Origin: a virus | Virus genome (UHGV): UHGV-1341054 | Length of the DNA stretch: 25,777 nt | Strand: one strand, 5' to 3' | Shown here: one piece after another, positions 916 to 21,557 of the stretch | Layout of the letters: each line of letters opens with the position of its first letter | Numbering within the stretch: position 1 is the stretch's first letter | Notes under the pieces: model-generated | What the model saw: the letters and a program-made list of their open reading frames with translations, nothing else | Databases searched by the model: none | Told to the model about the DNA's origin: nothing | Made by a program: the position numbers and the translations under genes

Positions 916-2279
916 TAATCGGCCTCTGGCGATTCTATGGCGATTTCATCATATCCGCCGTCATACTCTGTATCTGACGCGTCGTAATCGCCGTAAATTT
1001 CAGCCGTTGCGGAGGGGTCTATATCCAATTCATCATCGTTGGACTCGAATTCACCTGCCTTACGCTCACCATTTTGGTCATAATCACCACACCCCAGGTC
1101 TTCAACTATTGTTGCCACATCGGCACGGCGATCTGCCAACCACTGCGGATGGTTAGCCTGGAGTGAGGCGAACTCCCGCGCTTCTTTGTCCAGTTGTTCA
1201 TCATCAACATCATTGCTGTCAGAAATTGGCGGTTCCAGAAGCGTGATGGCTTTCGCCGCACGCGCAGCCAGGATTGCAGGAACACTTACCCCTTGCCGCT
1301 CGATGTATTCCGCAACACCTATATCGTCCAGTTCCTCGCGCTCGCGCATACGTATAGCGGTTGCGATAACCCTGGCGGCGCGTGCATCAGCGCCAAGACG
1401 ATAGTCAATCTCTTTGCTACGTTGCTCTGCCTGTAGGCGTGCAATGTCCAGTTTTTCTCTGGCCTCAGCCTCTTTAAATGCCTGCTGCCGCGCCCCCTGA
1501 ATCAGTTTTTCCTGGCCTTGCTGGAGTTTTTGCTCTGTCTGATAAATGGCTGCGAGGCGGCTGATGAAGTCGTTCATGTAATAGGCGGCATCCTGCATGA
1601 GGCCGCAGAGACGCTGGGCCGGGTGCATCCCTTCCGGCTCGCCATCGCCTAAAATATCAATTTCTTTACGTAGCCGTGCCGCCTCCATGTCTACAATTGA
1701 CTGGTATTCTATGGCGCGTTCCTGAGCCATCAGTATGGCCTTACGCAGATGTTCAGCTGCACCGTTCTGCATCATTTCACGGGCGACATTTTTCGACGGC
1801 AAGGTGGCACATTGTGCTGATTCGCCAGGGATCATTTGCAATGATCCCTGACTTGAAGATGCCTTTTTATCCTTTTCTGGGATCATTTTTGCTTTTTTAT
1901 CGGCAAATGATCCCTTTGATAAATCCACTAACTCACTGTTATCAAAGGGCTTATCAGCATGATCCTCGTTACGCTTGCGCGGCATCTCCCTGAATTGACT
2001 TGTCGCTGGCCTATTGTCAGTTTTTGTAAATTCTGATTCTTTTCCGCTCGCTCGTTGTTGTCTTTTTGTCCCACCAGCACGGGGTTGCTGGCGTGTTCTG
2101 GCGCGGTTCTTTGATGGTTTAACTTTGGCCTGCACCTCATTTTTTTTCATATTGAGATGCTTTCTGGCAGTGTTGAAACTAAGGCCATTTTGTTCACAGT
2201 ATTCCTTTACCGTGATCCCTTTTTCCTCTTTCAACGCCAGAAACCGGGCACGATGCTCTTCCCAATTAACCAGTGTCAT
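915..2279 (-). CDS. pacA: Terminase small subunit (PacA-like), 454 aa
   Basis: ORF immediately upstream of and coupled to the large subunit. N-terminus [42 protein letters not shown] looks like a terminase small-subunit HTH. The gene contains a GATC-rich repeat cluster (1828-1914), as the P1 pac site lies inside pacA. Start overlaps the upstream gene stop (ATGA). Confidence 0.65.
1828..1914. other. Candidate pac (packaging initiation) site: four copies of a GATC-containing 9-mer as two inverted pairs
   Basis: GGGATCATT at 1828-1836 and 1879-1887; reverse complement AATGATCCC at 1840-1848 and 1906-1914. Each carries a Dam GATC site. Analogous to the clustered TGATCA/G hexamers of the P1 pac site, but not the same sequence. 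Confidence 0.45.
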
Positions 2280-2668
2280 ACAGCAACACCACGGCGTTTA
2301 ATGGCTTCATTCCACAATCGGTTAGCCATGTTCACCAGTTCACGGCGTTCCGTCTGATTCTTGCCAAAGATAAATCGGTTGGAATTCTTTACAAGCAGGC
2401 GGTCAAACTGCGGTGTACGTCCGCGTACCTTAAACTGATACCCGTCAAGGCCATGAAGCCAGTATTTGCGCGGGTATACGCGGTCATCGCGCTCACAAAT
2501 AGCCCTGCTCGAACGAACAAAGTGACGGATGATATTGTTAACATTGACACGTGACACGTGAAGATGAGGATATTTATCTTTGGCGAGGGTGGTTATCTCA
2601 GTGACTGTAAGATAACAGTCTTTCCTGATCATGATATCCGCTATTTCGGCACTGCTGATTTTATCCAT
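2276..2668 (-). CDS. Hypothetical protein, 130 aa; by position could be a late-gene regulator, unverified
   Basis: ATG at 2668..2666; stop overlaps the pacA start (ATGA). In P1 the gene upstream of pacA is lpa, but the match here is positional only. Confidence 0.55.
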   Translation of the reverse strand: MDKISSAEIADIMIRKDCYLTVTEITTLAKDKYPHLHVSRVNVNNIIRHFVRSSRAICERDDRVYPRKYWLHGLDGYQFKVRGRTPQFDRLLVKNSNRFIFGKNQTERRELVNMANRLWNEAIKRRGVAV

Positions 2669-3174: not shown

Positions 3175-3746
3175 AATGCCTCCCAGTCAGTTGCCATAAT
3201 GTCTACGCTGCTGGCAAACCAGTCAGAACGTGCTTGCAAAGCACCATCCATCATTACCAGACGTGGAAGAATGGAGACTTTGACGCCCTTTTGCACGTTG
3301 AATATTCCTTCCGGAAGAAAGCTAACCATCTTGTCCTTACTTTCAATGCAGCCGGGTTCGAGTGATATGTACTGTCCTTTAGGCCAGGATTTTCGGCGTG
3401 CGTCTAATCCGTTCATTAACCAGTGGATTGCGACAGAAAAAGGAATGTTTGCTTTGGCAATGGAAAGTCCACCAGCGACAGCCTGTTTATGAAACTTGAG
3501 GAGTTTTACAGCGGCCTCGGCAAGCGCAACATAAGGTTCGGGATGGACTTCGGTAAGGCTGCATCCACGAACTGTTACTGTCACAGCATGGGAATCGCCT
3601 TTTGACGCCGTTTCGATGTTGACCCCTTTGTTTGACAGTGCGTGATACAAAGCGTCACCCATGCATGACCAGCGTTCATTGCGTCCAATGAACTCACTCA
3701 AGATGCGGTCCTGCTCTGTATACGTTGCATTAGCCAAAACAGTCAT
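3171..3746 (-). CDS. Hypothetical protein, 191 aa
   Basis: ATG at 3746 preceded by a strong SD (AGGAGAGG, 4 nt spacer); contiguous with and coupled to the downstream gene. Confidence 0.65.
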   Translation of the reverse strand: MTVLANATYTEQDRILSEFIGRNERWSCMGDALYHALSNKGVNIETASKGDSHAVTVTVRGCSLTEVHPEPYVALAEAAVKLLKFHKQAVAGGLSIAKANIPFSVAIHWLMNGLDARRKSWPKGQYISLEPGCIESKDKMVSFLPEGIFNVQKGVKVSILPRLVMMDGALQARSDWFASSVDIMATDWEAF

Positions 3747-4275: not shown

Positions 4276-4351
4276 TGGTGGCCCCTACCGGACTTGAACC
4301 GATGACCGTGCGATTATGAGTCGCCAGCTCTAACCACTGAGCTAAGGGGCC
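4276..4351 (-). tRNA. tRNA with anticodon CAU, most like tRNA-Ile2 (lysidine type); Met not excluded
   Basis: Minus-strand 76 nt GGCCCCTTAGCTCAGTGGTTAGAGCTGGCGACTCATAATCGCACGGTCATCGGTTCAAGTCCGGTAGGGGCCACCA. 7-bp acceptor stem, D and T arms, anticodon loop CTCATAA, encoded CCA. Closely resembles E. coli ileX as recalled from memory. Confidence 0.85.
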
Positions 4352-5312: not shown

Positions 5313-5388
5313 TGGGGCCGATTAACGGACTCGAACCGCTGACATCCTGCTTACAAGGCAGGCGCTCTACCAACTGAGCTAAATCGGC
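5313..5388 (-). tRNA. tRNA-Thr (anticodon UGU)
   Basis: Minus-strand 76 nt GCCGATTTAGCTCAGTTGGTAGAGCGCCTGCCTTGTAAGCAGGATGTCAGCGGTTCGAGTCCGTTAATCGGCCCCA. Canonical cloverleaf, anticodon loop CTTGTAA, encoded CCA. Confidence 0.9.
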
Positions 5389-5390
5389 AC

Positions 5391-5465
5391 TGGCGATGGT
5401 GAGTGGATTCGAACCACCGACCAGTTGGTTAACAGCCAACTGCTCTACCGCTGAGCTACACCATC
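5391..5465 (-). tRNA. tRNA-Asn (anticodon GUU)
   Basis: Minus-strand 75 nt GATGGTGTAGCTCAGCGGTAGAGCAGTTGGCTGTTAACCAACTGGTCGGTGGTTCGAATCCACTCACCATCGCCA. Canonical cloverleaf, anticodon loop CTGTTAA, encoded CCA. Lies 2 nt upstream of tRNA-Thr. Confidence 0.9.
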
Positions 5466-10060: not shown

Positions 10061-13000
10061 TTAAGCCGCCGCTTCAATGATTTTACGCACTTCATCAATT
10101 GAATAGCGCGTCGATACCATCCAGGCCGGACGGTCAAAGTCCACATCGGCAACCGGGTTAACTTCGAAGTTCCAGAAACGCCCACCGATTTTCTTGATGG
10201 CATCTTTTGCGTTGCGAATAGATGAAGATCCGGGCATATCTGCAATGAGATAAACAGCACCAGCGTCTTCACTTACGCTCCACCAGCGACCGCGTACACG
10301 TGCTTTGGCGCGAATAGGCTTATCGTTTACCACGATAATGTAATCATCATTCGCTACCTCGTCAGCCTTGATCTCAGCTACATCAGCCTGTTCTTCCCGT
10401 TCAGTCTTAGCCGCCGCAAGACGTTCAGCAATCTCTGACTCCGTAGCGCCACCATTTTTAAGCGACACAAAGTCATCCCACGTTGCAGATTTCAGAGCAT
10501 CAGGCAAATCTTCCACATACCCGCCCGCTTTTAAGGCGTTAGCATGGCGTATAGCCATCCCGACAAGACGATTCAAGCTATATGCATCTGCGAAATCATC
10601 ACGGGTAATGCTTTTATCCTCAAATGCATGAATTAACGCCCCCGCTTTAATCCAGACTGTTGCAGATGTTTCAAGCGGATTATCGGCATTAGAAATGCTT
10701 AGTTGCGCACTGTAAACTGACTGATCTGCCAACGAGGCAAGTGACGCCCAACCATCTGCATCACTTTGCATTTTGTACTGATCAAACAGCGCATCACGCC
10801 ATGCATTTAGCGCCATGCGTGTTTTCTCAATTTTGGTTGTGATTTTGGACGTTCGCAGTTGTTCGAACATCTGCGAAATCTCCGAACCATTGGTGAAGGC
10901 TTTCATGCGCCCCTGGAAATCGCGGAAAGAAAGCACGCCTCGCCAGTACGTTTCCAGGCCTTCTCCATTTGGCTTGCGGAACAAGCTGCGGACATCTTCC
11001 TGAGTCACTTTTTCAAGTGAACGCCCGGAGAGATCGCGCCCTGCCATCCAGCCATCGAACGCCTTGACCACATCATCCATAGTGGCCTGAGCGCCCCATG
11101 CCTCCATACCTTGCTCATAATCGAAGCCAAACAATGCACGGAGAAAACCTTCTGCCTCTGAAATACGAAGTGGGTTATCACCTGTCTGGATTTTCGCGAC
11201 TTCGCGTTTTAATGCTTCGTCGTTTACATCAGGATAAATCCATTGTTCAGGTGCTATCTCGTCACTTCCAGATGCGCTAATTTTTTGACCAATCATCCCG
11301 CCATAGGTAAAGGCCATTTGAATCTGACCATTGGCGTTACGATAAGCCCAATAGTTTACATCCGGTGCTCCTTGCCAACCGCCACGATCTTTCCCGGTTA
11401 CCCGCATAACACCGCTACGAATAGCGTCATAGAATTGATCGCGAGAAAGAGAGGTTGAAAGCTGGTGGCTTTGAACACCACGTGCCGCTATTTCTCGTGA
11501 TTCAGCCACCCCCTCTTCAAATGTTACCGCTTCAACCACTGAGTCAAACGGTAATGTCATGGTTGAGCCAGGAGAACGAGAGTAGCGACTTGCTCTATCC
11601 AGCCAGGCGACGCGGCAGGTGTATTGCGCTTTTTCGCCCTCAATTTGTGTCACGCGCACAACCGCCGTTGTCTCGTGTTCAGCATCAATGACTGCACGGT
11701 AGTAACTACCTTTATGCAACAGGATGTTCTTGCCAGTGCGCATATACTCCTGCGGGTTCTGAATAACATCGATACTGATATCCAGCACACCAGACTTAAT
11801 AGCACGCTCCACATCACCACGAGAGCGTTTCATAACAGTATCCGCGTCCTTCGCCCTGGTGATTGCAAATCGCAATTCACGCACTCTTTTTTTAGCTTTG
11901 CTTAGTGCTGAAAGCGTATATTTCTGTCCGTTTTTGTTGGTGCCGCTCTTAATCAGTCCATCCAGATCACTCTGGTATCGTTGCGCCTGCTCCATCGCGC
12001 TTTTCAGTTCTGCCTCCATCATGCCGATATCCTTCCCGGCAGCATTCGCCGCTTTCAGGTAGTTATCGAGAGCATTATTGGCTTCGCGTTGCGCTTTAAG
12101 TCGCAGGCGTTCCTCACGTTCTTTCGACTGACGAGCCATAATTGCGCGTCGTTCTTCCGGATTTGCCGCCAGCATAATGGCGCGCTCATCAGCGTCATCC
12201 GCATCACCATTGGCGATCTCTGACATATCGGAGGTCATCACCATCTTGATCCAGTCTTTCTTACGTTTAAGCGTATCCAGACGGAAGTCATCGAATGTGC
12301 CTTTGCCACAATAATAGTGAACATTAACCTTCTCTTGCGGAGAACCTACGCGCGCACCGCGCCCATTTCGTTGGTCGATACTGGCTGGAGTCCAGGGTAG
12401 TGTCAGGTGGTGAATATCGGTCGTTCCAATATGCAGGTTGATACCTACTTCGGCTTTCTTGTTACAGATAATGATCCGCGTGCGCCCTTCGTTATAGTCG
12501 GCAGCAATACCTTCCATCCCCTCAAGGCCAGCATCATTTTTAGCAGAGAGATAATCCTCATATTGGGCCAGTTTACTGTAGTAGGTTTCCCATGCGCCTT
12601 CTTTGTATTCACCGTCTTTGTTTGGCGTCGGTTCGGTCGGTTTTTTGACCTTTTTCAGCTTAACACCACCAGCCTGGCTAACAGTCGTAGCATTGATAAT
12701 GCCTATCTCCTGCTCTGACATTTGCAACGCACTGGCAATGATGCGACGTAGTTTCTGGTGCTGGGCTTTCTCGTCGATAAAGATAATTTGCTTACCGTTC
12801 TTAAGCCCTTCACGCAGGTTCTCGATAAGTGCGGCATACTTAGGCGGGATCGGGTGTGACACCTGTTTCATGTCGATGCCTGCATCAGCAATTGCCTTGA
12901 GTATTTCAGCCTCCAGGTCAATGCTGGCACGCAATTCGACATGATTTGGATGCTCACTAAATGTTGTAGCTACAACCTTGCTGGTACGGGTACTGACCAG

Positions 13001-16000
13001 GCCTCCGGTCGCATCCTCCTCTGCTTCTTCTGCATCGTCTGCCGCTTTCCCACCAGCTACTTTTGGTAGGTTATTAGCTATAGACTTCACCTGTTCAGTA
13101 AGCTCTACAGGGAACTGGAATGTGATAGCGCTGGCGTAAAGATCCGGGTCGATAGCGACCTTATCCATGTCGCGAATGATAGAGAAAATGAAATCATCCG
13201 GTTTCCCGCGAGTGATATTGCCTTCATCATCGACAGTGACGTCATCACCACGACTTAACTCCTGCGCGCGTTTACGAAGCTCTTCATAAGCTGCTTGCTG
13301 CTCTGGAGTCATTGGGATCTGCAAGGTGTTTTCGACGATATCCGGGATTTTTACCGTTGCACCAACATCGGAAGCCGTTTTAAGCGTTGTCCAGCGGTGG
13401 AAAATGCCACGCAGACCATCAAGGTTCTGGAAGCCCACCAGCCCCTGTTTCTCTTCCACTTCGCCAGAAATTTTCTGGACCTGAACAGTGGCTGTTTTAC
13501 CGAACACTCGCACAAAGTCGTCAGGGGTAATAATCCCCATGTGCATCCACTCGTGCTGAGGGATCACCGTTGACAGCATGTTGAAGGCGTCAATAGGGCT
13601 ATTAACCAGCGGAGTTGCTGTCAGCATTACGACGCCGCGCCCATTGTGACGTTTCATCATGTACGCAGCTTTTACAGCCATGTCACGGGCCATTTTGGAT
13701 ACCGCCGGATTAGGTAAATATGCCAGTTGCCCCGCTTCACGCCCGGCACCAAAGGAGTTGCGGTAGTTGTGCCCTTCGTCGGCAATTACGCTATCGAAGT
13801 TCATATCCTCAAAGTACGGGATATTCTGCTTCTTCGCTGTACCGGTATTCGCGGCCTGGTCCTTAATCTTGTTCTTCTTCTGCGCATCACGGTGCTTGCC
13901 TGACGCCAGGTCAAGACGCCCCATTTCGGCGGCATTAAAGACAGCCTGCTGTGAGTTTTCTCCGATGGTTTCATCGCGCAACGGGATAGATGCGAACTGC
14001 TCTTTTGTCATGATGACCGTTCGCCAGTTCGACGATGGGATCATGTTCATGCGTTGAGCGATAACGGCACTGGCGGATTCTTTAACAACATTACGGGTGA
14101 TCGGATTGCCGTCGTTATCAAGTCGCGGGGTGCCGTCCTGGTCGAGCACTGGGGCAGTCTGAATATTTCCGTCACCATCGCGCACTTCGTCCAGACCGAT
14201 AAACATCATATTGGCGAAGGCATCTGCACTGTAGAAGCTCTGTGCCTCGTGATACCAGTTCTGGTATACGGCCTTTGGAACAACGATACAGGTACGTTTG
14301 GTTCGCCCGGTTTCAAAGTTATAGGCTTCCAGTGCCAGCGCGGTCGTCGTTTTACCCAAACCAGTTCCGAATCCCATAATCCCGCGCCCATCTTCCGACA
14401 GACGACGAACTTCTTCGTTCTGGTAAGAAAGCGGTATACGTTTCCCGCTGATGCCTTCAAGCCCCAGGGGTGCGTCTGAATGGGTAAATGGAATATAACC
14501 GTTAAAGGCGTCGTTATAATCGCGGGCGATCTGATCTGCCTGCGGGTGAGTTCTTAACCAGTCGTTAAAACTCGTCTCAAGCTGGGCGATTTTGTCCAGG
14601 TACTCGTTAGCGTTCTGTCCGCGCGGTTTAACACCGTTCAGGTAGTTCTCAAGCTGATTCAGGAAGCCATCTTTGTTATTCGCTTTCTTGAACTCGTTCC
14701 CGTTTTTGCCGTTTACGGTTCGTAGCTGGTAGCCAGTAAATACCCCGTCCTTACCTTCGTAATCGTCCGGGGATACCAGAATGCCGTTCTCAACCTTAAG
14801 GTCGGGTTCTGTATACTTAAACTCGTCATAGCCCTGCTCTGCCAGGAACTCTTTTATCAGGCGGCGATCCAACCACCGTGCGTTAAGGTTTACCGTGACT
14901 TTGTTCAGCGGTGTAAACGTGCGTTTCTCTTCGATTTTTGAAAGCTGGCGCTCAAAGTTGGCCTTCCGCTCTCCTGTGGACGCGTCTCGCCAGCCCACCA
15001 GCAGTGCCACTTTTGATTTAATATCACCGCTAGTGGCACGGCCCATCGGTAGCAGGCAACCATATCCATCAATAGCGATATCGTCGAATTTCGCCAGGTA
15101 TTCCAGTGCTTCATCGTCGTCTTCGGGCAGTTCGCCTTTAAACGCCTCGCGGAAGTCATCAAGATTGATAGGATTAAGGGCAACATCGCTGAAAAGGTGT
15201 GTCACAACCTGTTCCGGACGAGTGAAATCAATACCAGCAGCCCCTTTGCTAACATCAAGCCGTCCGGACAGCAGATCGGATGCTTCACCGTCCTGATTGA
15301 CGTTCCCGGTGAATGTCAGCCAGTTCTTCGCGCCCGCTTCGGTAATATCGTTTAGCTTAATAGCGTGTGGTGGGCCATATTTAGCAACTTCGGCAGCCGT
15401 CAGACGTGCGGCATCAGCCAGTTCATCATCGACGTTTTCACCAAGGTTACGCTTATCCAGCGCTTTATTGATAAGTTGTCCGATCAGCGCACCGCGCATA
15501 ATGCGCTCACGGTCTTTTTCGCGTTGTTTCCCAGCAAAGCGAATCATTGCCGCTACTTCATCACTGATAACCGATGGATAGTCGGAAGCGATCGCGGATA
15601 TCTGCCCCCATGACAGAGCCAGAATGCCGTTTGTTGATTGGAACGTTGTTTGCAGATCACCGAATGTCGAAACACCATATCGGCTTACATCAAGTACGGA
15701 GGATTTGGTTGTCGCATCTTTAACCCATTTCAGGCCATCAAACTCGTGCCAGATGCCACCTACAAGGCGCTTATCTCCTACTTTGGCACCCTGCCATGCC
15801 TGAGTAGTTACGCCAAGCAAATCCCAATTAATGCGGCTTTCAAAGCGGCGCGATAGAGCGGTTTTCATCGACTCATTGGATACACGACCGTCCTTTTTCA
15901 CCACCAGGGTGTTGCGGAAGCTGGTGCGTTCCATGTCGCCGTAAACGAATCGCTTCCCTTCGGTTGTAAACCACTTGCCTTTCAGAAAGGTATCCCAAAG

Positions 16001-16903
16001 GACATTTGCCGATTTTAGCGTCGCATCATCCGTATCGGGGATCATCTCCAGGAAGGCTTCCGGGTGTTTACGCAATACCCATACGTCCACAACTGTATCT
16101 GTACCGGATTCGCTGAACGTACCGGAAGGCATACGATGTGCGCCCAGAAATTCCGCTTTACGACTAACCTTGTCACGCAGTTTCTTGTATTTAGTGCCGT
16201 CGGTCATGCCGTTAGGCACCACCAGCACGATCAGTCCGCCAGGTTTAACCTTGTCAATGGTACGAAGCACAAAGTAGTTACCTACGTTCTTTTCGTTCGC
16301 ATAGGCAGGATCTAATCCAGCCACACCGGAACGACCTTCCCCGAACGGCACATTACCCACCGCGTGGTCATACATTGCGTCTTTGGCTGCAAGCGACTCA
16401 AACGCTCCGATATTCACATCATCTTCCGGGTGCAATAACTGGTTAATTCGACCAGAAATCGGAGACAATTCGGCGCTCGTCATTATCATTCCCTGCCGCT
16501 TCGTCTCCTGGAAAATTCCCGTACCCGCTGACGGTTCAAGAACATGACCGCTATCAATGCCGTAATCCGAAAATAAATCCCAGATACCTTCTGCCATAAA
16601 TTGCGGCGTGTAATACTCGTACTGACTTCCTTCGCCATCCGTCAGACCACCTTCCCCGGTGTATCCTGCAAGGATCTGACGCTGTTCGTCTGTCAACTGA
16701 GAGCCATCGAAACCGGGAGGCAAAGCGTTAAGAAGATTGACTGCCGCGTTATTAGCTGCCCGGCGAGTCTTCTGAATGCTGACGCCATCTACCTTCTTAA
16801 CGCCGAAGGCGGCGATTGCACGTGGTTTATGTAACCGACTGATAAGGTCAATCAGTCCACCAATGCTGGTGGCTGCATTGATTGAATTGAGTAATTTGTC
16901 CAA
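10061..16903 (-). CDS. darB: Giant 2280-aa protein: N-terminal N6-adenine methyltransferase domain plus SF2 helicase, DarB-like antirestriction protein
   Basis: Single uninterrupted 6.8-kb ORF. MTase motif I VLEPSAGTGIF and motif IV GNVPFG near the N-terminus; helicase Walker A GFGTGLGKTT, motif II VIADEGHNY, motif III LTATPLVN, motif VI QRNGRGARVG. Size and architecture match P1 DarB (2255 aa) as recalled. Plus-strand ORFs inside are antisense shadows. Confidence 0.8.
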   Translation of the reverse strand: MDKLLNSINAATSIGGLIDLISRLHKPRAIAAFGVKKVDGVSIQKTRRAANNAAVNLLNALPPGFDGSQLTDEQRQILAGYTGEGGLTDGEGSQYEYYTPQFMAEGIWDLFSDYGIDSGHVLEPSAGTGIFQETKRQGMIMTSAELSPISGRINQLLHPEDDVNIGAFESLAAKDAMYDHAVGNVPFGEGRSGVAGLDPAYANEKNVGNYFVLRTIDKVKPGGLIVLVVPNGMTDGTKYKKLRDKVSRKAEFLGAHRMPSGTFSESGTDTVVDVWVLRKHPEAFLEMIPDTDDATLKSANVLWDTFLKGKWFTTEGKRFVYGDMERTSFRNTLVVKKDGRVSNESMKTALSRRFESRINWDLLGVTTQAWQGAKVGDKRLVGGIWHEFDGLKWVKDATTKSSVLDVSRYGVSTFGDLQTTFQSTNGILALSWGQISAIASDYPSVISDEVAAMIRFAGKQREKDRERIMRGALIGQLINKALDKRNLGENVDDELADAARLTAAEVAKYGPPHAIKLNDITEAGAKNWLTFTGNVNQDGEASDLLSGRLDVSKGAAGIDFTRPEQVVTHLFSDVALNPINLDDFREAFKGELPEDDDEALEYLAKFDDIAIDGYGCLLPMGRATSGDIKSKVALLVGWRDASTGERKANFERQLSKIEEKRTFTPLNKVTVNLNARWLDRRLIKEFLAEQGYDEFKYTEPDLKVENGILVSPDDYEGKDGVFTGYQLRTVNGKNGNEFKKANNKDGFLNQLENYLNGVKPRGQNANEYLDKIAQLETSFNDWLRTHPQADQIARDYNDAFNGYIPFTHSDAPLGLEGISGKRIPLSYQNEEVRRLSEDGRGIMGFGTGLGKTTTALALEAYNFETGRTKRTCIVVPKAVYQNWYHEAQSFYSADAFANMMFIGLDEVRDGDGNIQTAPVLDQDGTPRLDNDGNPITRNVVKESASAVIAQRMNMIPSSNWRTVIMTKEQFASIPLRDETIGENSQQAVFNAAEMGRLDLASGKHRDAQKKNKIKDQAANTGTAKKQNIPYFEDMNFDSVIADEGHNYRNSFGAGREAGQLAYLPNPAVSKMARDMAVKAAYMMKRHNGRGVVMLTATPLVNSPIDAFNMLSTVIPQHEWMHMGIITPDDFVRVFGKTATVQVQKISGEVEEKQGLVGFQNLDGLRGIFHRWTTLKTASDVGATVKIPDIVENTLQIPMTPEQQAAYEELRKRAQELSRGDDVTVDDEGNITRGKPDDFIFSIIRDMDKVAIDPDLYASAITFQFPVELTEQVKSIANNLPKVAGGKAADDAEEAEEDATGGLVSTRTSKVVATTFSEHPNHVELRASIDLEAEILKAIADAGIDMKQVSHPIPPKYAALIENLREGLKNGKQIIFIDEKAQHQKLRRIIASALQMSEQEIGIINATTVSQAGGVKLKKVKKPTEPTPNKDGEYKEGAWETYYSKLAQYEDYLSAKNDAGLEGMEGIAADYNEGRTRIIICNKKAEVGINLHIGTTDIHHLTLPWTPASIDQRNGRGARVGSPQEKVNVHYYCGKGTFDDFRLDTLKRKKDWIKMVMTSDMSEIANGDADDADERAIMLAANPEERRAIMARQSKEREERLRLKAQREANNALDNYLKAANAAGKDIGMMEAELKSAMEQAQRYQSDLDGLIKSGTNKNGQKYTLSALSKAKKRVRELRFAITRAKDADTVMKRSRGDVERAIKSGVLDISIDVIQNPQEYMRTGKNILLHKGSYYRAVIDAEHETTAVVRVTQIEGEKAQYTCRVAWLDRASRYSRSPGSTMTLPFDSVVEAVTFEEGVAESREIAARGVQSHQLSTSLSRDQFYDAIRSGVMRVTGKDRGGWQGAPDVNYWAYRNANGQIQMAFTYGGMIGQKISASGSDEIAPEQWIYPDVNDEALKREVAKIQTGDNPLRISEAEGFLRALFGFDYEQGMEAWGAQATMDDVVKAFDGWMAGRDLSGRSLEKVTQEDVRSLFRKPNGEGLETYWRGVLSFRDFQGRMKAFTNGSEISQMFEQLRTSKITTKIEKTRMALNAWRDALFDQYKMQSDADGWASLASLADQSVYSAQLSISNADNPLETSATVWIKAGALIHAFEDKSITRDDFADAYSLNRLVGMAIRHANALKAGGYVEDLPDALKSATWDDFVSLKNGGATESEIAERLAAAKTEREEQADVAEIKADEVANDDYIIVVNDKPIRAKARVRGRWWSVSEDAGAVYLIADMPGSSSIRNAKDAIKKIGGRFWNFEVNPVADVDFDRPAWMVSTRYSIDEVRKIIEAAA

Positions 16904-16977: not shown

Positions 16978-17057
16978 GGATAACAAAGTTGGCACCCAAA
17001 ACCGCCATTCATTAATGGAGTAGGTTTTAGCGTGCCCGGATAACAAATATGGCTGCC
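16978..17057. promoter_or_regulatory. Divergent control region: two direct repeats GGATAACAAAnnTGGC 60 bp apart flanking a short palindrome
   Basis: GGATAACAAAGTTGGCACCC (16978-16997) and GGATAACAAATATGGCTGCC (17038-17057); between them AAAACC ... CCATTCATTAATGG ... GGTTTT. Lies between the divergent starts at 16903 (minus) and 17114 (plus). Confidence 0.3.
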
Positions 17058-17113
17058 ATGAAAATCACACACTCCCCATAGTTTATGTTCGTTTGTTAAC
17101 CAGAGGAGTAGTT

Positions 17114-17599
17114 ATGGTGAGTACCGATCCTCGTTGGCTGATGGAAGCCCGTAAACATATTGGCCTGACAGAAATCAAAGGGGCTAAACACAATCCTGAA
17201 ATCGTCCAGTTCTGGCGAGACATCAAGCGCGGCGGCATTAAAGATGATGAAACGCCGTGGTGCGCGGCCTTTGTTGGCGCAATGTTAGAGCGTGTTGGTA
17301 TCCGTTCCAGCCGCTTCGAGTCAGCAAAATCCTACCTGACATGGGGTGAGGCGCTCGATACGCCAGCGTATGGATGTATTGCTGTATTTACTCGCGTGGG
17401 CGGCGGGCATGTCGGCTTTGTCGTTGGTCGCCGGGCGAATGGTGATTTGCTCATTCTTGGGGGCAACCAGGGCGATGCCGTGAATATCCGCGCTTTCCCA
17501 ACATCGCGCGTTTCAGGTTATCGCTGGCCTACTGGAGAACCACGGAATACTGCCTTACTTCCTAATGGTGAGGCCGCCACATCCACCAGCGAAGCGTGA
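17114..17599 (+). CDS. TIGR02594-type (NlpC/P60- or CHAP-like) putative peptidoglycan hydrolase, 161 aa
   Basis: Preferred start ATG 17114 with SD GAGGAG (ORF track gives TTG at 17093). Motifs DDETPWCAAFVGAML, GGGHVGFVVG and LGGNQGDAV fit the conserved Cys/His hydrolase pattern of this family. Only clear plus-strand gene in the window. Confidence 0.7.
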   Translation: MVSTDPRWLMEARKHIGLTEIKGAKHNPEIVQFWRDIKRGGIKDDETPWCAAFVGAMLERVGIRSSRFESAKSYLTWGEALDTPAYGCIAVFTRVGGGHVGFVVGRRANGDLLILGGNQGDAVNIRAFPTSRVSGYRWPTGEPRNTALLPNGEAATSTSEA

Positions 17600-17606
17600 C
17601 TCCACA

Positions 17607-17634
17607 CCCCGGTACAGGCCGGGGTTTCTGTATT
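17607..17634 (+). terminator. Rho-independent terminator for the plus-strand hydrolase gene
   Basis: CCCCGG-TACAGG-CCGGGG followed by TTTCTGTATT, 8 nt after the stop; sits between convergent genes. Confidence 0.5.
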
Positions 17635-17656
17635 AAGCTGTCATAATTTACCCACA

Positions 17657-18619
17657 TCATCCTCGGAATCCAGCAGGGATACGCCACTCACGATCATCAA
17701 ACTCAGTTTTGGTGCCTCGTTGTTTCATGAGCTTTAACGCCTCGTCAACGGTCTGGCAGCCCTGATAGGCCGAATAATCCATTGAAAAATCCAGCCCGTT
17801 GGCAGTCTTATTGGCCTTTCCCGCATTCCCTGTCCCGCGAATCCAGGCAATTTTATGAGCTAACTTTTCAGCAGCCCGATGTAGTGACAGACGTTTCGCG
17901 TGGCGGTCGTCAGCCTGACGTTTAGCGGATCGCGCTTTTGCAGCAGCTATGCGGCTGTTTATCTGCTCTTCGCTAACAACATGCGCTTCACTCAGAAAGT
18001 CTGGATTTAACTGAGTGGACACCGCCTGGGAAGCCTTTGGCTGAACCTGGCATGATCTTTCTCTTTTTTTGGTTACGGTTTTATTCTTCTTTTCTATTGG
18101 TTGTTCATCATGAACACGGGGGGAGTTGTTCATTTTGAACAGGGGGGCATTGACCTCAAAAAAAGAACGTACCTTTGAAATCAGTTGCTTAACCAGTTTC
18201 GTGGCATTAACAATTTTGACGCCCTGCTTACGTCCAGTCTCCAAAACGATGGAAATAAACTGGAGGAAATCAGGGGTGAAGCGGTAGACATTACAAACCT
18301 GAGCATTGTTACTGCCAATCTGATGTTGCTTGGTGAGCATTCCACATTTAACAGCCTCAGAAAATGCACGGCGAACGGTGGAGACGCTACGGCCCAGAAT
18401 GGCAGCCATATCAGCATAAGAGCGACGGATTATGTATTCGTCAGTTGACCCTGCCAGGTTGGAAAATTCGGCAATGATCGAACCGTGTGTTGGCGACAGG
18501 AATCCACTGTGCCGGGCAAAGAAACTTAGCTGGTGGCCTTTGATATGCTTATGGTACTCAGCGTTGCCTTTCCGCTCAAAAATGTTGAAAGTGATGGCAT
18601 CTGAATTTAAAATATCCAT
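17657..18619 (-). CDS. HTH-containing protein, possible replication initiator (Rep-like), about 320 aa
   Basis: Preferred start ATG 18619 with SD AAGGA (ORF track start 18652 lacks an RBS). Segment YADMAAILGRSVSTVRRAFSEAVKCGML is a typical winged-HTH; C-terminal region is basic and K/R-rich. Function is inferred. Confidence 0.55.
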   Translation of the reverse strand: MDILNSDAITFNIFERKGNAEYHKHIKGHQLSFFARHSGFLSPTHGSIIAEFSNLAGSTDEYIIRRSYADMAAILGRSVSTVRRAFSEAVKCGMLTKQHQIGSNNAQVCNVYRFTPDFLQFISIVLETGRKQGVKIVNATKLVKQLISKVRSFFEVNAPLFKMNNSPRVHDEQPIEKKNKTVTKKRERSCQVQPKASQAVSTQLNPDFLSEAHVVSEEQINSRIAAAKARSAKRQADDRHAKRLSLHRAAEKLAHKIAWIRGTGNAGKANKTANGLDFSMDYSAYQGCQTVDEALKLMKQRGTKTEFDDREWRIPAGFRG

Positions 18620-18725
18620 CTGTAATCCTTGATATATCAATGCGAGTTCCAAGTTTTGGTATATCAGCGTGGGTGTCTAAGACCTACGCCTCTGATAAAT
18701 CTACTCAAATAGATTTATCGCCCTC

Positions 18726-18749
18726 AAAAGCCGCCCCCCAGCGGCTTTT
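18726..18749. terminator. Bidirectional rho-independent terminator
   Basis: AAAAGCCGC-CCCCCA-GCGGCTTTT, with A/T runs on both sides; downstream of the 18866..19861 gene. Confidence 0.55.
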
Positions 18750-18815
18750 GTTCTTTCTACGCCCATCAAACTGAGCAACGAACGCGATCCTACCCGAAAC
18801 ATTAATCACTAATCA

Positions 18816-18848
18816 ACAGTGTATATTAATACACTGTGTTAGAAATTT
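18816..18848. promoter_or_regulatory. Perfect 22-bp palindrome abutting a copy of the recurring motif (GTGTTAGAAATTT), candidate operator or origin-proximal site
   Basis: ACAGTGTAT-ATTA-ATACACTGT (9-bp arms, 18816-18837), immediately followed by GTGTTAGAAATTT (18836-18848), upstream of the Rep-like gene. Confidence 0.4.
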
Positions 18849-18865
18849 AATTTAATCAAAAAGAC

Positions 18866-19861
18866 CTAACGTCGCGAAACAAAGATCAACGGGCTTACAT
18901 TCTTGTTGTTTTGAGATAGTGCTTGCTGCTTCTCTCCTTTCGTAACAGGCAGGCCATACGTTGCATTTACCCCCAGAGACTCAAGCATCGCTGCCACAAT
19001 TCGGGCGTCATCTTCTGACTGCATCCGACATAATGCACGGCGTTGCTCTGCACTGATGAATACAGGCATTTCCTGGATAGCGTCACGCAGGATACGACGG
19101 CATTTCTTCGCATCTTCACCCTGGCTTTCCATCATTGCTGTCTGAGCGCGTAGCTTGTCGCGAAGCTGCATGTTTTCCACTTCAAGGAGCATCAATTCTG
19201 ATTCCAGGGCTTCACGCTGTACTGATTCGAGCATGGCTTGCTGACTCTTCATTGCTGAGAAGTGATGCACAAGATCGGTGGCAGCATTATCTGTAAAGCC
19301 CTGAGCAATAAGCGCCGCGTGAATTGCAGCCTCTCTCTCCTCTGCTGACTCAAGCATCAGGCTTTTCTTGTCAAGGCTGATATAGTTAGGCACCGTCACA
19401 TAATCGAAACCATGAAACGACTTCACCATGGAGACTGAGGAATCCGGTCCAGATGTCGCCCATGACCACCCACCAGCACCTGAATTAATCATCCCCTGCA
19501 CTATACGCCCGGTATCGGTATCCAGAATTTCCTGTGTATGCGTAACAACACCATTGTCATCAACTGAAATATCAATCGTCCTGTTAGATGGTACGTTTTC
19601 AAGAACTACAGGCTTTCCATCCACCATGACGACTGAAACTTCTGGCAAATTAAGACTTTTGGTTTTGTCGTAATGCATTGCGCGGCGACCGTGGCCGTAA
19701 TAGCCATACATTTCACCGAGCGCAATCCTCTCTTTCGTCTCAGGATAATTCAATGTCTCCCGCACCGACTGAATAACGTAATTTCGGTTGTTTTGCGGCG
19801 TATGCTTACGAATTTTCTCGACCAAAGAGAAGCGATCCGTAACGGTGTTCAGTGATTGCAT
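18866..19861 (-). CDS. Hypothetical protein, 331 aa, coiled-coil C-terminal half; possible head morphogenesis protein
   Basis: ATG at 19861 with strong SD GGAGGG; tightly linked to the upstream 560-aa gene (13-nt spacer); followed by a terminator. Confidence 0.65.
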   Translation of the reverse strand: MQSLNTVTDRFSLVEKIRKHTPQNNRNYVIQSVRETLNYPETKERIALGEMYGYYGHGRRAMHYDKTKSLNLPEVSVVMVDGKPVVLENVPSNRTIDISVDDNGVVTHTQEILDTDTGRIVQGMINSGAGGWSWATSGPDSSVSMVKSFHGFDYVTVPNYISLDKKSLMLESAEEREAAIHAALIAQGFTDNAATDLVHHFSAMKSQQAMLESVQREALESELMLLEVENMQLRDKLRAQTAMMESQGEDAKKCRRILRDAIQEMPVFISAEQRRALCRMQSEDDARIVAAMLESLGVNATYGLPVTKGEKQQALSQNNKNVSPLIFVSRR

Positions 19862-19874
19862 TCATTCCCTCCGG

Positions 19875-21557
19875 TTAATTGCTCATCACGAATTTTGCGA
19901 AGTTAATCAACTGTTCTGGTGTCCAGTTTTCCGGGTTATCACCAGACGAGGCTGGCGCGGACTCATACATTCCATGCTCATTATTCGAGTCGGATTCGTT
20001 TTCCTTAAACTCCTTGAGCATGGTATTCAGCGTGTCGCTATCGATATGCAACTGTTCGGTAAACAGGTAACGCATAAAGGCTTCGCTGCCTGCCAGCTTT
20101 GGATTGTTCTGGATTTGATCCATGATTTGAGAAATGACGGCGACAAAGTTAGCGCGGGCATCCAGTTCTCTGTTTTCCTCTTCCTGAATAGCCGTATTCA
20201 TCGAGTTGAATTGCACGGCATAGGGACGATTGGCTTCGGTGTATACCTTGCCGTACTTGTACGCGAGATGAATATCCGACAGGCGGTAAATGGTTCTCTG
20301 TGCCGCCTGCCGTATCCAGTTAGCACGAAGCGCCGCCTGGATAGCGGTCTGTTGCCAACCTCCTTCTCCAAGCCCGCCGCTCATTTGATCGGCCCAACCG
20401 AGCATCGTAGCGTCAATACCTAAGCTGGCGGATAACTGACGAAGGTGAAACATAACGTCTTCGATGCCACTGATATCTGCGGGGATAGACTGCGTATCAA
20501 TAGTGATTCCGTTCTTCCCATCGCCCATGACCGGGATCAGATGGTTAAGCACGGTCGGGATGGCGTTGGCATTTATTGATCGCTGCGCCAGCATGTCACT
20601 GTGGCGCTTTAATGCCTGACTGACGCCTCGCGTATAGTTCGCGGCATTGACAGGATCGAGCGTATTAGTCGTCAGGGCGATAAGCCTGTCAATTTTTGCA
20701 GCGTTATTACGCGTAGATTTCAGCGCGGCAAGGGCAGCACATAGATTCAGGAATGGTTCGTAACTGTATTCCAGAAAAGACGTGCCATAGTTCTGTGTTT
20801 CAGTGAGCGGTTTGTCTTTCTGATCGCTCAACAGGGAATATCCCTTCGCCCCATAAGTCACGGGCATTAATTTATGCTGCGGTGTCCAGTATGGGTTTTT
20901 CATCGCAACCAGGTTCCACGGTTCTGTGATCACCCGGCGCATACTTTCAGAATCCAGGATGTAATCACCCCCAAAGCCAACAAACTGGCTCCCCCGATAG
21001 AACTCCTGGATGAAGTGAGGCAATGTGTAATAACTCGACTCGATGCCCGTAATCCCTTTCCCCTGCTCGGCATAGGGACGAACATACGACACACCAAAAA
21101 TAGCCATAATCATGGCCCATGACGGCAGGCCATCATTAATCATTGCCCCTAAATCGGCTGTTAACTCTTCACACCTTTTGACGGATTCAGTATCTGCCCC
21201 GTCTTTTGGCGCAAGCATAAACGCAAGCCCCGTTTTTTTTGACGGTGCCAGAGCGTGCGCAATGTGAATATTTAAGGCTGTGGAGATGGTTGGGCTTTTC
21301 GCCATCGTTTCCAGGATGTTGTACTTTTGCAGGCGGTCGCCGGGCAGTTCTGCCGAAATTGATACTGTATCTGCCGCGCTTGTCATGCCATCGCTATTGC
21401 CACCCAGGATACCCGGACGTAAAGCAGACAGGCCAGAACGCGCAACGACACTATGCCCGCTTGTAAAAACGACCGGATCAGCAGGCGTGACATCGCCACT
21501 GTTGAAGGCCTTCTTCAATGCCGACAGAAAGCCTTTGTTTTTATCTTTCGTTGCCAT
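19875..21557 (-). CDS. Hypothetical protein, 560 aa; possible portal or other virion structural protein
   Basis: Long ORF with ATG at 21557; no catalytic motifs recognised by eye. Plus-strand ORFs 19788..20423 and others overlap it and are rejected. Confidence 0.65.
   Translation of the reverse strand: MATKDKNKGFLSALKKAFNSGDVTPADPVVFTSGHSVVARSGLSALRPGILGGNSDGMTSAADTVSISAELPGDRLQKYNILETMAKSPTISTALNIHIAHALAPSKKTGLAFMLAPKDGADTESVKRCEELTADLGAMINDGLPSWAMIMAIFGVSYVRPYAEQGKGITGIESSYYTLPHFIQEFYRGSQFVGFGGDYILDSESMRRVITEPWNLVAMKNPYWTPQHKLMPVTYGAKGYSLLSDQKDKPLTETQNYGTSFLEYSYEPFLNLCAALAALKSTRNNAAKIDRLIALTTNTLDPVNAANYTRGVSQALKRHSDMLAQRSINANAIPTVLNHLIPVMGDGKNGITIDTQSIPADISGIEDVMFHLRQLSASLGIDATMLGWADQMSGGLGEGGWQQTAIQAALRANWIRQAAQRTIYRLSDIHLAYKYGKVYTEANRPYAVQFNSMNTAIQEEENRELDARANFVAVISQIMDQIQNNPKLAGSEAFMRYLFTEQLHIDSDTLNTMLKEFKENESDSNNEHGMYESAPASSGDNPENWTPEQLINFAKFVMSN

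Follow-up and report, generated by a model that had tools for sequence, protein, structure and literature searches.

We analysed a stretch of viral DNA of 25,777 nucleotides (nt), the UHGV virus genome UHGV-1341054, which as a whole is called the window here, and in particular its repL gene with the region that precedes it. An earlier reading of the letters alone, the original prediction, had proposed a lytic replicon at 17657-18848, a span that holds the repL gene and most of its upstream region. The raw open reading frame (ORF) covers 17657..18652 on the minus strand; the likely start of repL is the ATG at 18619..18617, which has AAGGA 7 nt upstream. The gene and the candidate origin inside it are as follows.

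17657 to 18619, minus strand: repL, lytic replication initiator of 320 amino acids (from the ORF, its translation, tblastn, alignments, PHROG and AlphaFold)
18053 to 18147 (nt 476-570 of the ORF), no strand assigned: candidate oriL core, made of two tandem inverted-repeat units and an A/T-rich tract (from homology to P1 T5/AT2 and lineage comparison)
18125 to 18147, minus strand: iteron-like unit 1, CCCCCC TGTTCA-AAA-TGAACA AC on the coding strand
18100 to 18124, minus strand: iteron-like unit 2, TCCCCCC G TGTTCA-TGA-TGAACA AC on the coding strand
18053 to 18099, minus strand: A/T-rich tract of 47 nt with 72% A+T, purine-rich on the coding strand and ending in AAAAAAAGAGAAAGATCA, the counterpart of P1 AT2

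The protein was compared with its relatives along several routes. By tblastn, the repL genes of P1, P7, SJ46, RCS47 and further P1-like phages were matched with E-values from 1e-22 to 2e-19, at 28-30% identity and 91% coverage, and the identity reaches 65% with D6 orf20 (MF356679), which is annotated as 'lytic replication protein; similar to P1 gene repL'. In the RepL alignments conservation extends along the whole length, with an invariant C-terminal IPxGFRG that reads IPAGFRG in the window. A PHROG search gave phrog_2418 at E 7e-93, followed by weaker matches to 'replication initiation O-like' families (E 1.5e-6 and 1.5e-3). Precomputed matches to PF26868, Phage_P1_RepL, exist on relatives with 34-91% identity; an NCBIfam scan of RepL gave no family-level match, and a sequence search of the Protein Data Bank found no solved relative. 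The family is small: an exhaustive HMMER search of 1.84e9 representatives retrieved 15 proteins at E <=1e-3. A genome-contig scan returned just two P1-type loci, a word-based homolog search just six proteins, and a viral-contig scan with P0012 no matches.

The AlphaFold model (mean predicted local distance difference test score, pLDDT, 67.6) predicts with confidence a winged helix for residues 20-160, followed by a disordered linker (about 164-213) and a long basic helix (217-262); the C-terminal part is rich in K and R. The protein could conceivably be just a winged-helix transcription regulator with no function in replication. Pfam indeed reports sub-threshold helix-turn-helix (HTH) matches only (Sigma70_r4_2, HTH_36), and the best Foldseek matches are regulators of the MarR/ArsR/SlyA type, at E values of at least 7e-3. 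We did not retain these fold matches as a guide to functional class: what they show is a generic winged helix, which cannot separate initiators from regulators. The likeness to P1 RepL, a protein that has been studied experimentally, is on the other hand full-length and includes the C-terminal half outside the HTH, down to the IPAGFRG end; the PHROG matches are replication initiators and not regulators, and the origin layout within the gene, described below, is conserved. We consider a mere regulator highly improbable. The predicted Rep-like protein, with its winged HTH and basic C-terminus, is thus borne out as a full-length homolog of P1 RepL.

The window region matches phage D6 and about 100 plasmids of Escherichia, Shigella and Salmonella. 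Identity over 17000-19900 is 99.5-99.6% for three Shigella dysenteriae plasmids of 79-80 kb and for one of 76 kb from E. coli, and in the 99.5%-identical plasmids the Prokaryotic Genome Annotation Pipeline labels the gene 'lytic replication protein'. The matching plasmids are P1-related plasmid prophages. A separate replicon of the RepB type lies elsewhere on the near-identical plasmid, and repL would therefore be a second, lytic replicon, as in P1. From these comparisons RepL is almost certainly the initiator of a lytic replicon, and the explanation that covers the locus as a whole, the lytic replicon of a D6-like, P1-related plasmid prophage, is very probably the right one.

The original prediction had proposed looking for an origin in or near the gene, and two inverted-repeat units beside an A/T-rich tract were found inside repL. 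In P1, synonymous mutation of the 43-bp A/T-rich sequence AT2 abolishes RepL-driven amplification (Huan et al. 2023, PMC9948254), and an 88-bp non-coding fragment, T5, suffices as RepL target in trans (PMC9948254). The supplement gives T5 as ccccctccccc-tgtcaggatgac-gtggc-[AT2]-gatcagtttccggcggtgccgg; Huan et al. remarked on the C/G-rich sequence before AT2, and in 2023 they still called the exact sequence of oriL and the mode of action of RepL unknown (PMC9948254). We observed that P1 T5 consists of one C-run with a TGTCAGGATGAC unit, followed by AT2, and that the C/G-rich stretch of P1 repL is made of two tandem units, CCCCC-A-TGTCA-AAA-TGATA and CCCCC-TGTCA-GGA-TGACG. The P1 database record places oriL within repL, and the layout found in the window sits at the position that aligns with P1 T5/AT2.

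The same layout, a C-run, an inverted repeat and an A/T-rich tract, recurs in seven RepL lineages. The half-sites are TGTTCA in D6, CTGATCA-N3-TGATCAG in L121 and in L007 (a metagenomic contig of 88 kb), TGTTCA and GGTCA in L093, and TAGTCA/TGGTCA in L101, L108 and L112; common to all RepL lineages compared are the core TCA-N3-TGA and an A-rich tract near whose end a GATC is found. Between the window and D6, the arms and the C-runs are invariant and the 3-nt spacers vary. Codon usage was also examined. Over codons 141-200, window and D6 use the identical codon in 34 of the 41 identical residues, against a background of 45% (P 8e-7), and when 51 distinct P1-type genes were compared, no more than 2 of their 116 variable sites lay within nt 451-510.

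The repeats could, in principle, have nothing to do with an origin: they might arise from a repeat in the linker peptide (of the PPCQND type in P1), or belong to messenger RNA structure that tunes translation. In P1 and several other lineages the unit period is 24 bp and yields a tandem peptide, PPxQxD xPPxQxD, and each repeat unit could form a small hairpin. In the window and in D6, however, the period is 25 bp, and the two window units fall in different reading frames, giving PLFKMNN and SPRVHDEQ, two peptides with no relation to each other, so that the repeat resides in the DNA and not in the peptide. Among lineages the linker peptides are wholly different while the DNA pattern is kept; the segment encoded by the core is the one that AlphaFold predicts to be disordered; and the equivalent P1 fragment is sufficient for RepL-driven amplification in trans as a non-coding sequence (PMC9948254). 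We therefore find the peptide or translational explanation quite improbable, and these observations argue that it is the DNA rather than the peptide that is under selection at the repeats.

An internal oriL at 18053-18147 is thus likely, placed there because of the homology to P1 T5, the layout shared by the lineages, the synonymous conservation and the disordered linker. The inverted repeats would be candidate RepL binding sites, and the tract at 18053..18099 is, by analogy with P1 AT2, a candidate DNA-unwinding element. The GC-skew profile was set aside as evidence for the origin, its mid-gene change of sign and the A+T maximum being too local.

Two further observations concern this region. 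In three RepL lineages a DnaA box lies directly upstream of the first repeat unit; it is perfect (TTATCCACA) in P1 (L003, at about 3385-3393) and in the P0016-like L101, L108 and L112, and matches at 8 of 9 positions (TCATCCACA) in L093. In the records of two near-identical Shigella dysenteriae plasmids, NZ_CP026816 (L001) and NZ_CP026818 (L088), repL is annotated as two coding sequences because one nucleotide is missing from the C6 run of unit 2; this deletion may stem from a sequencing error in the homopolymer or may be genuine, as an inactivating or phase-variable change within the origin.

Upstream of the gene we recognized the following features, listed in the direction of repL transcription.

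18835 to 18848, plus strand: the recurring motif TGTGTTAGAAATTT, monovalent, probable D6-type C1 operator
18816 to 18837, no strand assigned: near-palindrome ACAGTGTAT-ATTA-ATACACTGT (that is, ACAGTGTATATTAATACACTGT), directly upstream of the candidate -35 and touching it
18787 to 18816, minus strand: candidate repL promoter, with -35 TTGATT at 18816..18811, an 18-nt spacer and -10 TAGGAT at 18792..18787
18725 to 18750, no strand assigned: GC-rich hairpin CAAAAGCCGC-N6-GCGGCTTTTG, conserved in the D6 types and in L007
18620 to 18762, plus strand: predicted cis-antisense RNA of about 140 nt over the repL 5' untranslated region (UTR) and Shine-Dalgarno sequence
18630 to 18666, 18667 to 18689, 18693 to 18720 and 18725 to 18750, plus strand: stem-loops of this RNA, the last one a terminator that is followed by a U-run
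18585 to 18613, plus strand: antisense promoter-like TTGAAA-17-TAAAAT (10 of 12 consensus positions), inside repL codons 3-12 and directed away from the gene body

The motif at 18835-18848 overlaps the near-palindrome by 3 nt. Other copies (TGTGTTAGAAAT) occur in the window at 2751(+), 2776(-), 6560(-), 6723(-), 8098(-) and 9148(-). The first two form an inverted, bivalent pair just upstream of the lpa homolog (2276..2668), and single copies lie before the VRR-NUC gene, before a gene of 403 residues and upstream of the tRNA region. In the 79.7-kb plasmid NZ_CP026808, GTTAGAAA is present in 15 copies where 1.95 were expected (maximum 5). There, c1 has a site 27 nt ahead of it, lpa and ref are each preceded by an inverted pair, and further copies stand in front of icd and of the VRR-NUC gene and behind the recombinase gene. 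Placement in D6 is the same (ahead of c1, icd and repL, and after dre), and the repressor of the element is 70% identical to D6 C1. The annotated C1 operators of P1 (Oc4, OrepL, Ossb) show a parallel distribution. Being over-represented and placed before c1 and early genes, the motif is very probably a D6-type C1 operator, binding being predicted, and the repL copy very probably corresponds in function to P1 OrepL/Op53. We also considered the P1 C1 consensus itself, ATTGCTCTAATAAATTT, as the operator of the window and rejected it: its best matches carry 4-5 mismatches, and the element has a different motif. In all relatives the conserved repL module starts exactly at the motif; farther upstream the D6 subgroups differ wholly. 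In L008, changes flank the operator copy (window 18835-18853) despite an overall identity of about 99.5%.

The neighbour upstream of repL is pro, the gene of the head-processing protease, and the 243-nt spacer between the two holds no ORF. No kilA was found upstream of repL, pro standing in its place, which differs from the P1 operon. The near-palindrome lies 28 nt past the pro stop codon and 197 nt upstream of the repL ATG. Between it and repL are found the GC-rich hairpin at 18725-18750, a perfect 10-bp inverted repeat at 18694-18719 and two further stem-forming stretches. To judge this density, we counted inverted repeats whose perfect arms measure 9 bp or more and whose spacer does not exceed 8 nt, and compared them with local shuffles. 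The window contains 7 such loci against 0.70 +/- 0.87 in 300 shuffles, and 3 of the 7 fall within the pro-repL spacer, where 0.01 was expected. The four other loci are at 1826-1855 (11-bp arms, inside pacA), 4553, 6804 and 9427. Palindrome, motif and hairpins are kept in the D6 lineage although RepL itself is only 65% identical.

The original prediction had described a perfect 22-bp palindrome fused to the recurring motif upstream of the gene, in the arrangement of a repressor-controlled replication operon like P1 kilA-repL under C1. The fusion was confirmed, through the 3-nt overlap with TGTGTTAGAAATTT. The palindrome is not perfect: the 9-bp arms are, and the central ATTA is not symmetric, so that the reverse complement differs at the central four bases. 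It does lie upstream, at 18816-18837, but not directly before the gene, from which the hairpins separate it. As to the operon, a C1-type motif does stand upstream of repL and is strongly over-represented, but kilA is missing and the motif lies upstream of the -35. What was said there of P1 agrees with the P1 database record, which gives control through OrepL/Op53 and oriL inside repL.

We observed that the window, the D6 types and L007 share TTCTAA-N22-TTGAT(T/C)-N18-TAGGAT, in which the spacer is fixed in length and variable in sequence and therefore has the signature of a promoter. GATC overlaps the -10 in the window, and in D6 and L007 the -35 as well, which recalls the Dam sites at the -35 of P1 PkilA. 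On this comparison the assignment of the repL promoter to 18816..18787 is somewhat favoured. When the stretch from the hairpin to the ATG was inspected by eye for a sense promoter, it yielded only poor matches that are not conserved (TTGAGG-18-TAGATT in the window, with a spacing of 16 nt in D6).

The near-palindrome could be an extended promoter element or the site of a dedicated regulator. It might even be the true operator of repL, bound by a dimeric repressor or activator of its own, with the TGTGTTAGAAATTT copy being incidental. It abuts the candidate -35, centred at about -45; it is kept in the window and D6 lineages and, being a single copy in the 79.7-kb relative, would suit a gene-specific site, and the operator copy tolerates single-nucleotide polymorphisms (SNPs). 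But the left arm varies without compensation (it is 8/9 in the D6 types and absent from L007), whereas the right arm, together with TTGAT, is invariant in the window, D6-type and L007 lineages, which suggests promoter-proximal sequence rather than a symmetric site. In addition, the TTCTAA core of the motif keeps a fixed distance of 22 bp to TTGAT in three lineages, the conserved module begins at the motif, and no candidate cognate regulator was found. A dedicated operator in the near-palindrome is therefore improbable, and the C1-type motif is preferred as the regulatory site.

Two other roles for the palindrome were tried and rejected. The late promoters of P1, which depend on Lpa, have a 9-bp box at -22, then 4 bp and then the -10. 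The palindrome does not fit such a box, since P1 LPlyz, AAGTGATTT-GCAT-TATCCT, differs from it, and in the 79.7-kb relative the arm ACAGTGTAT has no other promoter-like occurrence and does not stand before late genes. An autoregulation site for RepL was also dismissed, the palindrome showing on inspection no likeness to the TGTTCA-N3-TGAACA units.

On the opposite strand, several observations point to an antisense RNA. The hexamers of the antisense promoter-like site are identical in D6 and in 18 distinct relatives, with a variable spacer. Within codons 1-20, all 10 of the 10 comparable synonymous codons are identical between the window and D6 (P 4e-4). The hairpin at 18725-18750 toward which this promoter points is a good intrinsic terminator on the plus strand and a weaker one on the minus strand of repL, with no more than 4 U behind it there; in the terminator scan it scores on the plus strand only (tail UUUUGUUCUUUCU), and likewise in D6 and L007. 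For 18620-18762 the minimum free energy of the plus strand is -51.9 kcal/mol (z -7.85, reached by 0 of 200 shuffles) against a z of -2.57 for the sense strand, and the shorter D6 counterpart of the RNA, of about 100 nt, has a z of -6.0. When 12 distinct sequences were aligned, 97.4% of the cells were paired; two pairs of stem-loop 3 change on both sides and three pairs change on one side only, via G-U. These wobbles and the constant G-U pairs fit the plus strand only, because they would be A-C mismatches on the sense strand. The predicted RNA is complementary to the whole repL 5' UTR including AAGGA. Compared with the D6 types, the window-type leader carries an insertion of 43-44 bp (18623-18693), which creates two extra stem-loops, 18630-18666 and 18667-18689.

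Scanning the whole window against Rfam 15 at the gathering threshold gave tRNAs only. Within 18500-18900 the best Rfam match is RNAI at 20.8 bits (18660-18751, plus strand; E 0.12), far from its gathering score of 47, and the likeness is one of shape, several hairpins plus a terminator, and not of membership.

An alternative is that the hairpin cluster at 18628-18750 acts on the sense strand, either as a leader or attenuator of repL or as a terminator of the portal-pro late operon together with palindromes that bind protein, and that no antisense RNA is made. The hairpin follows pro and would insulate repL from late transcription, L007 has 6 U after its hairpin on both strands and no detected antisense promoter, and conserved arms with variable spacers would also suit sites of dimeric proteins. 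The folding energies, however, favour the plus strand by far, the one-sided substitutions and the constant G-U pairs suit pairing on that strand only, the terminator scan selects the antisense strand in the window, D6 and L007, and the 10/12 promoter, with its perfectly conserved hexamers and synonymous sites, is aimed into the cluster. A sense-strand role alone seems to us rather unlikely, and we regard the existence of the predicted antisense RNA as fairly probable.

Taken together, these features suggest a model in which repL would be controlled in three layers. A promoter of the sigma-70 type (18816..18787) would be flanked upstream by the near-palindrome and by one C1-type operator; since the operator stands beside the promoter, the prophage repressor would silence repL in lysogens. 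The conserved hairpin/terminator in the repL leader would form the second layer. As a third one, a constitutive antisense promoter in the first repL codons may produce the four-hairpin RNA of about 140 nt, ending at the leader hairpin, which would damp leaky repL expression in a way functionally like the P53as RNA of P1; Heinrich and colleagues are said to have reported in 1995 that the RNA from the antisense promoter of the P1 lytic operon controls the P1 lytic replicon. Once made, RepL would attach, probably in dimeric form, to the pair of tandem inverted repeats (18100-18147) and open the adjacent A/T-rich tract (18053-18099), where the host replication proteins could then load. That all parts of a wider proposal hold jointly has, in our view, an even chance: that C-run + TGnTCA-N3-TGAnCA units are RepL recognition sites with lineage-specific half-sites, placed before the A/T tract in every repL examined, that RepL is lambda-O-like, and that a hitherto undescribed four-hairpin antisense RNA gates the replicons of the D6 type.

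A number of points weigh against this model. All functions at the repL locus are inferred from sequence, and our local Pfam copy, which perhaps lacks the PF26868 model, gave no RepL-family match, only the sub-threshold HTH. At the origin, the window, D6 and L007/L121 have no DnaA box at the repeats, T5 of P1 functions with a single repeat unit (PMC9948254), and there are as yet no published mutations directed at the P1 repeats themselves. The candidate promoter matches the consensus at 8 of 12 positions, below the scan threshold, and has an 18-nt spacer; the terminator-like hairpin lies between it and repL, so that read-through or a second, unfound promoter would be needed. The operator is situated about 20-40 bp upstream of the candidate -35 and not over the promoter as in P1, and repression by C1 from such an upstream position is unexplained; moreover, the operator copy at repL in NZ_CP026808 (53965-53985) carries 2 SNPs (GTTAGAATTTT), and the D6 variant at the operator is GTTAGCAA. 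As for the near-palindrome, an operator role is no more than putative, given that it has no second copy elsewhere in the 79.7-kb relative, in which its half-site is never again paired, and that its left arm is missing in a third lineage. Finally, in L007 the hairpin is retained, yet the scan detects no antisense promoter there at its threshold.

The surroundings of repL are those of a P1-like phage. The minus strand of the window carries pacB, pacA, lpa, tRNAs, the VRR-NUC gene, a darB-like SNF2 protein of 2280 amino acids, repL, pro, portal and head genes; a TIGR02594/CHAP gene follows directly after repL on the plus strand, in convergent orientation, and the repressor gene c1 lies just beyond the left end of the window. 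Three tRNA genes are found on the minus strand at 4279-4351, 5316-5388 and 5394-5465 (Rfam 63-74 bits), as in P1-like phages. The darB-like SNF2/methylase ORF extends over 10061-16903 (minus strand); in NZ_CP026808 it is annotated as two overlapping coding sequences (N-6 DNA methylase and SNF2-related), which points to either a frameshift or differing annotation. In the E. coli relative NZ_CP091837 (L124), which also carries an IncFIA replicon, an element of the IS200/IS605 family (tnpA and a transposase gene, at 101-1790) is inserted between the darB-like and TIGR02594 genes. An effect of this insertion on the repL control region was considered and rejected, since the insertion adjoins the TIGR02594 gene. 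In D6 (L002, 6964-8505) an operon of icd and an anti-repressor gene, preceded by the motif, is located directly downstream of repL and has no counterpart at 17600-17656 of the window, and the icd-like gene of a window-type plasmid lies elsewhere (NZ_CP026808, 9756-9941), so that the position of the immI-like module with respect to repL has shifted.

In itself the locus is an ordinary find, the gene being already labelled 'lytic replication protein' in public records; what is added here are the candidate RepL recognition sites in oriL and the candidate antisense regulator. P1 RepL is widely used, in P1-derived and bacterial artificial chromosome (PAC/BAC) vectors and in copy-number amplifiers for biosensors. 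When the divergent window lineage is set against six others, what is left as candidate recognition element is a short inverted repeat beside the necessary A/T-rich region. If this is true, lineage-specific half-sites would offer mutually orthogonal inducible RepL/oriL replicons, a defined minimal origin and specificity determinants. The annotation of phage-plasmids, which often carry resistance genes, gains the D6-type repressor operator motif and the candidate antisense regulator.

We finally compared the locus with known systems. The lytic replicon of P1 (Op53/OrepL-P53/PkilA-kilA-repL) resembles the window in having a full-length homologous initiator, an origin placed at the aligned position within the initiator gene, with a C-run, an inverted repeat and an A/T tract that ends at GATC, a single monovalent operator of the prophage repressor upstream, and GATC sites that overlap promoter hexamers. 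It also has an antisense promoter (P53as/PaskilA) at the 5' end of the operon, where the window has its 10/12 promoter-like site. The two differ in that identity is about 30% and P1 has kilA, whereas in the window repL stands alone after pro. The half-site is TGTCA in P1 and TGTTCA in the window, and only P1 has a DnaA box at the repeats. The P1 operator, ATTGCTCTAATAAATTT, lies over the -10, unlike TGTGTTAGAAATTT, which is upstream of the -35 in the window. A terminator hairpin separates promoter and repL in the window, and the antisense transcript, which in P1 covers the promoter and the start of kilA, would here cover the ribosome-binding site of repL.

The second system is D6 orf20 (MF356679), of the D6-like plasmid prophages of E. 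coli and Salmonella. It shares with the window the synteny portal-pro-repL, the 65% identity, the operator, the near-palindrome, TTGAT-N18-TAGGAT, the hairpin, the inverted repeat of stem-loop 3, the antisense promoter and the internal repeats. D6 lacks the 43-44-bp leader insertion of the window and has icd and the anti-repressor gene downstream of repL, where the window has the convergent TIGR02594/CHAP gene.

In phage lambda, ori-lambda consists of inverted-repeat iterons and an A/T-rich region inside the gene of the initiator O, in the part that encodes the interdomain linker. Common to lambda O and the window are the origin in linker-coding DNA, inverted repeats beside an A/T tract and an N-terminal winged helix. 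Lambda has four units and the window two, the C-terminal domains are unrelated, and the window has no adjacent gene of the lambda P type. Pfam and NCBIfam do not place RepL in an O-type family, for which only the weak PHROG matches mentioned above speak. The likeness to lambda O is thus one of architecture, not of membership. The predicted antisense RNA, for its part, can be set beside RNAI of ColE1 and CopA of R1, antisense RNAs that control plasmid replication initiators. Like these it would be short, multi-hairpin, terminator-ended, constitutive and opposite an initiator leader; unlike them, since they act in a copy-number replicon, it would control a lytic one.

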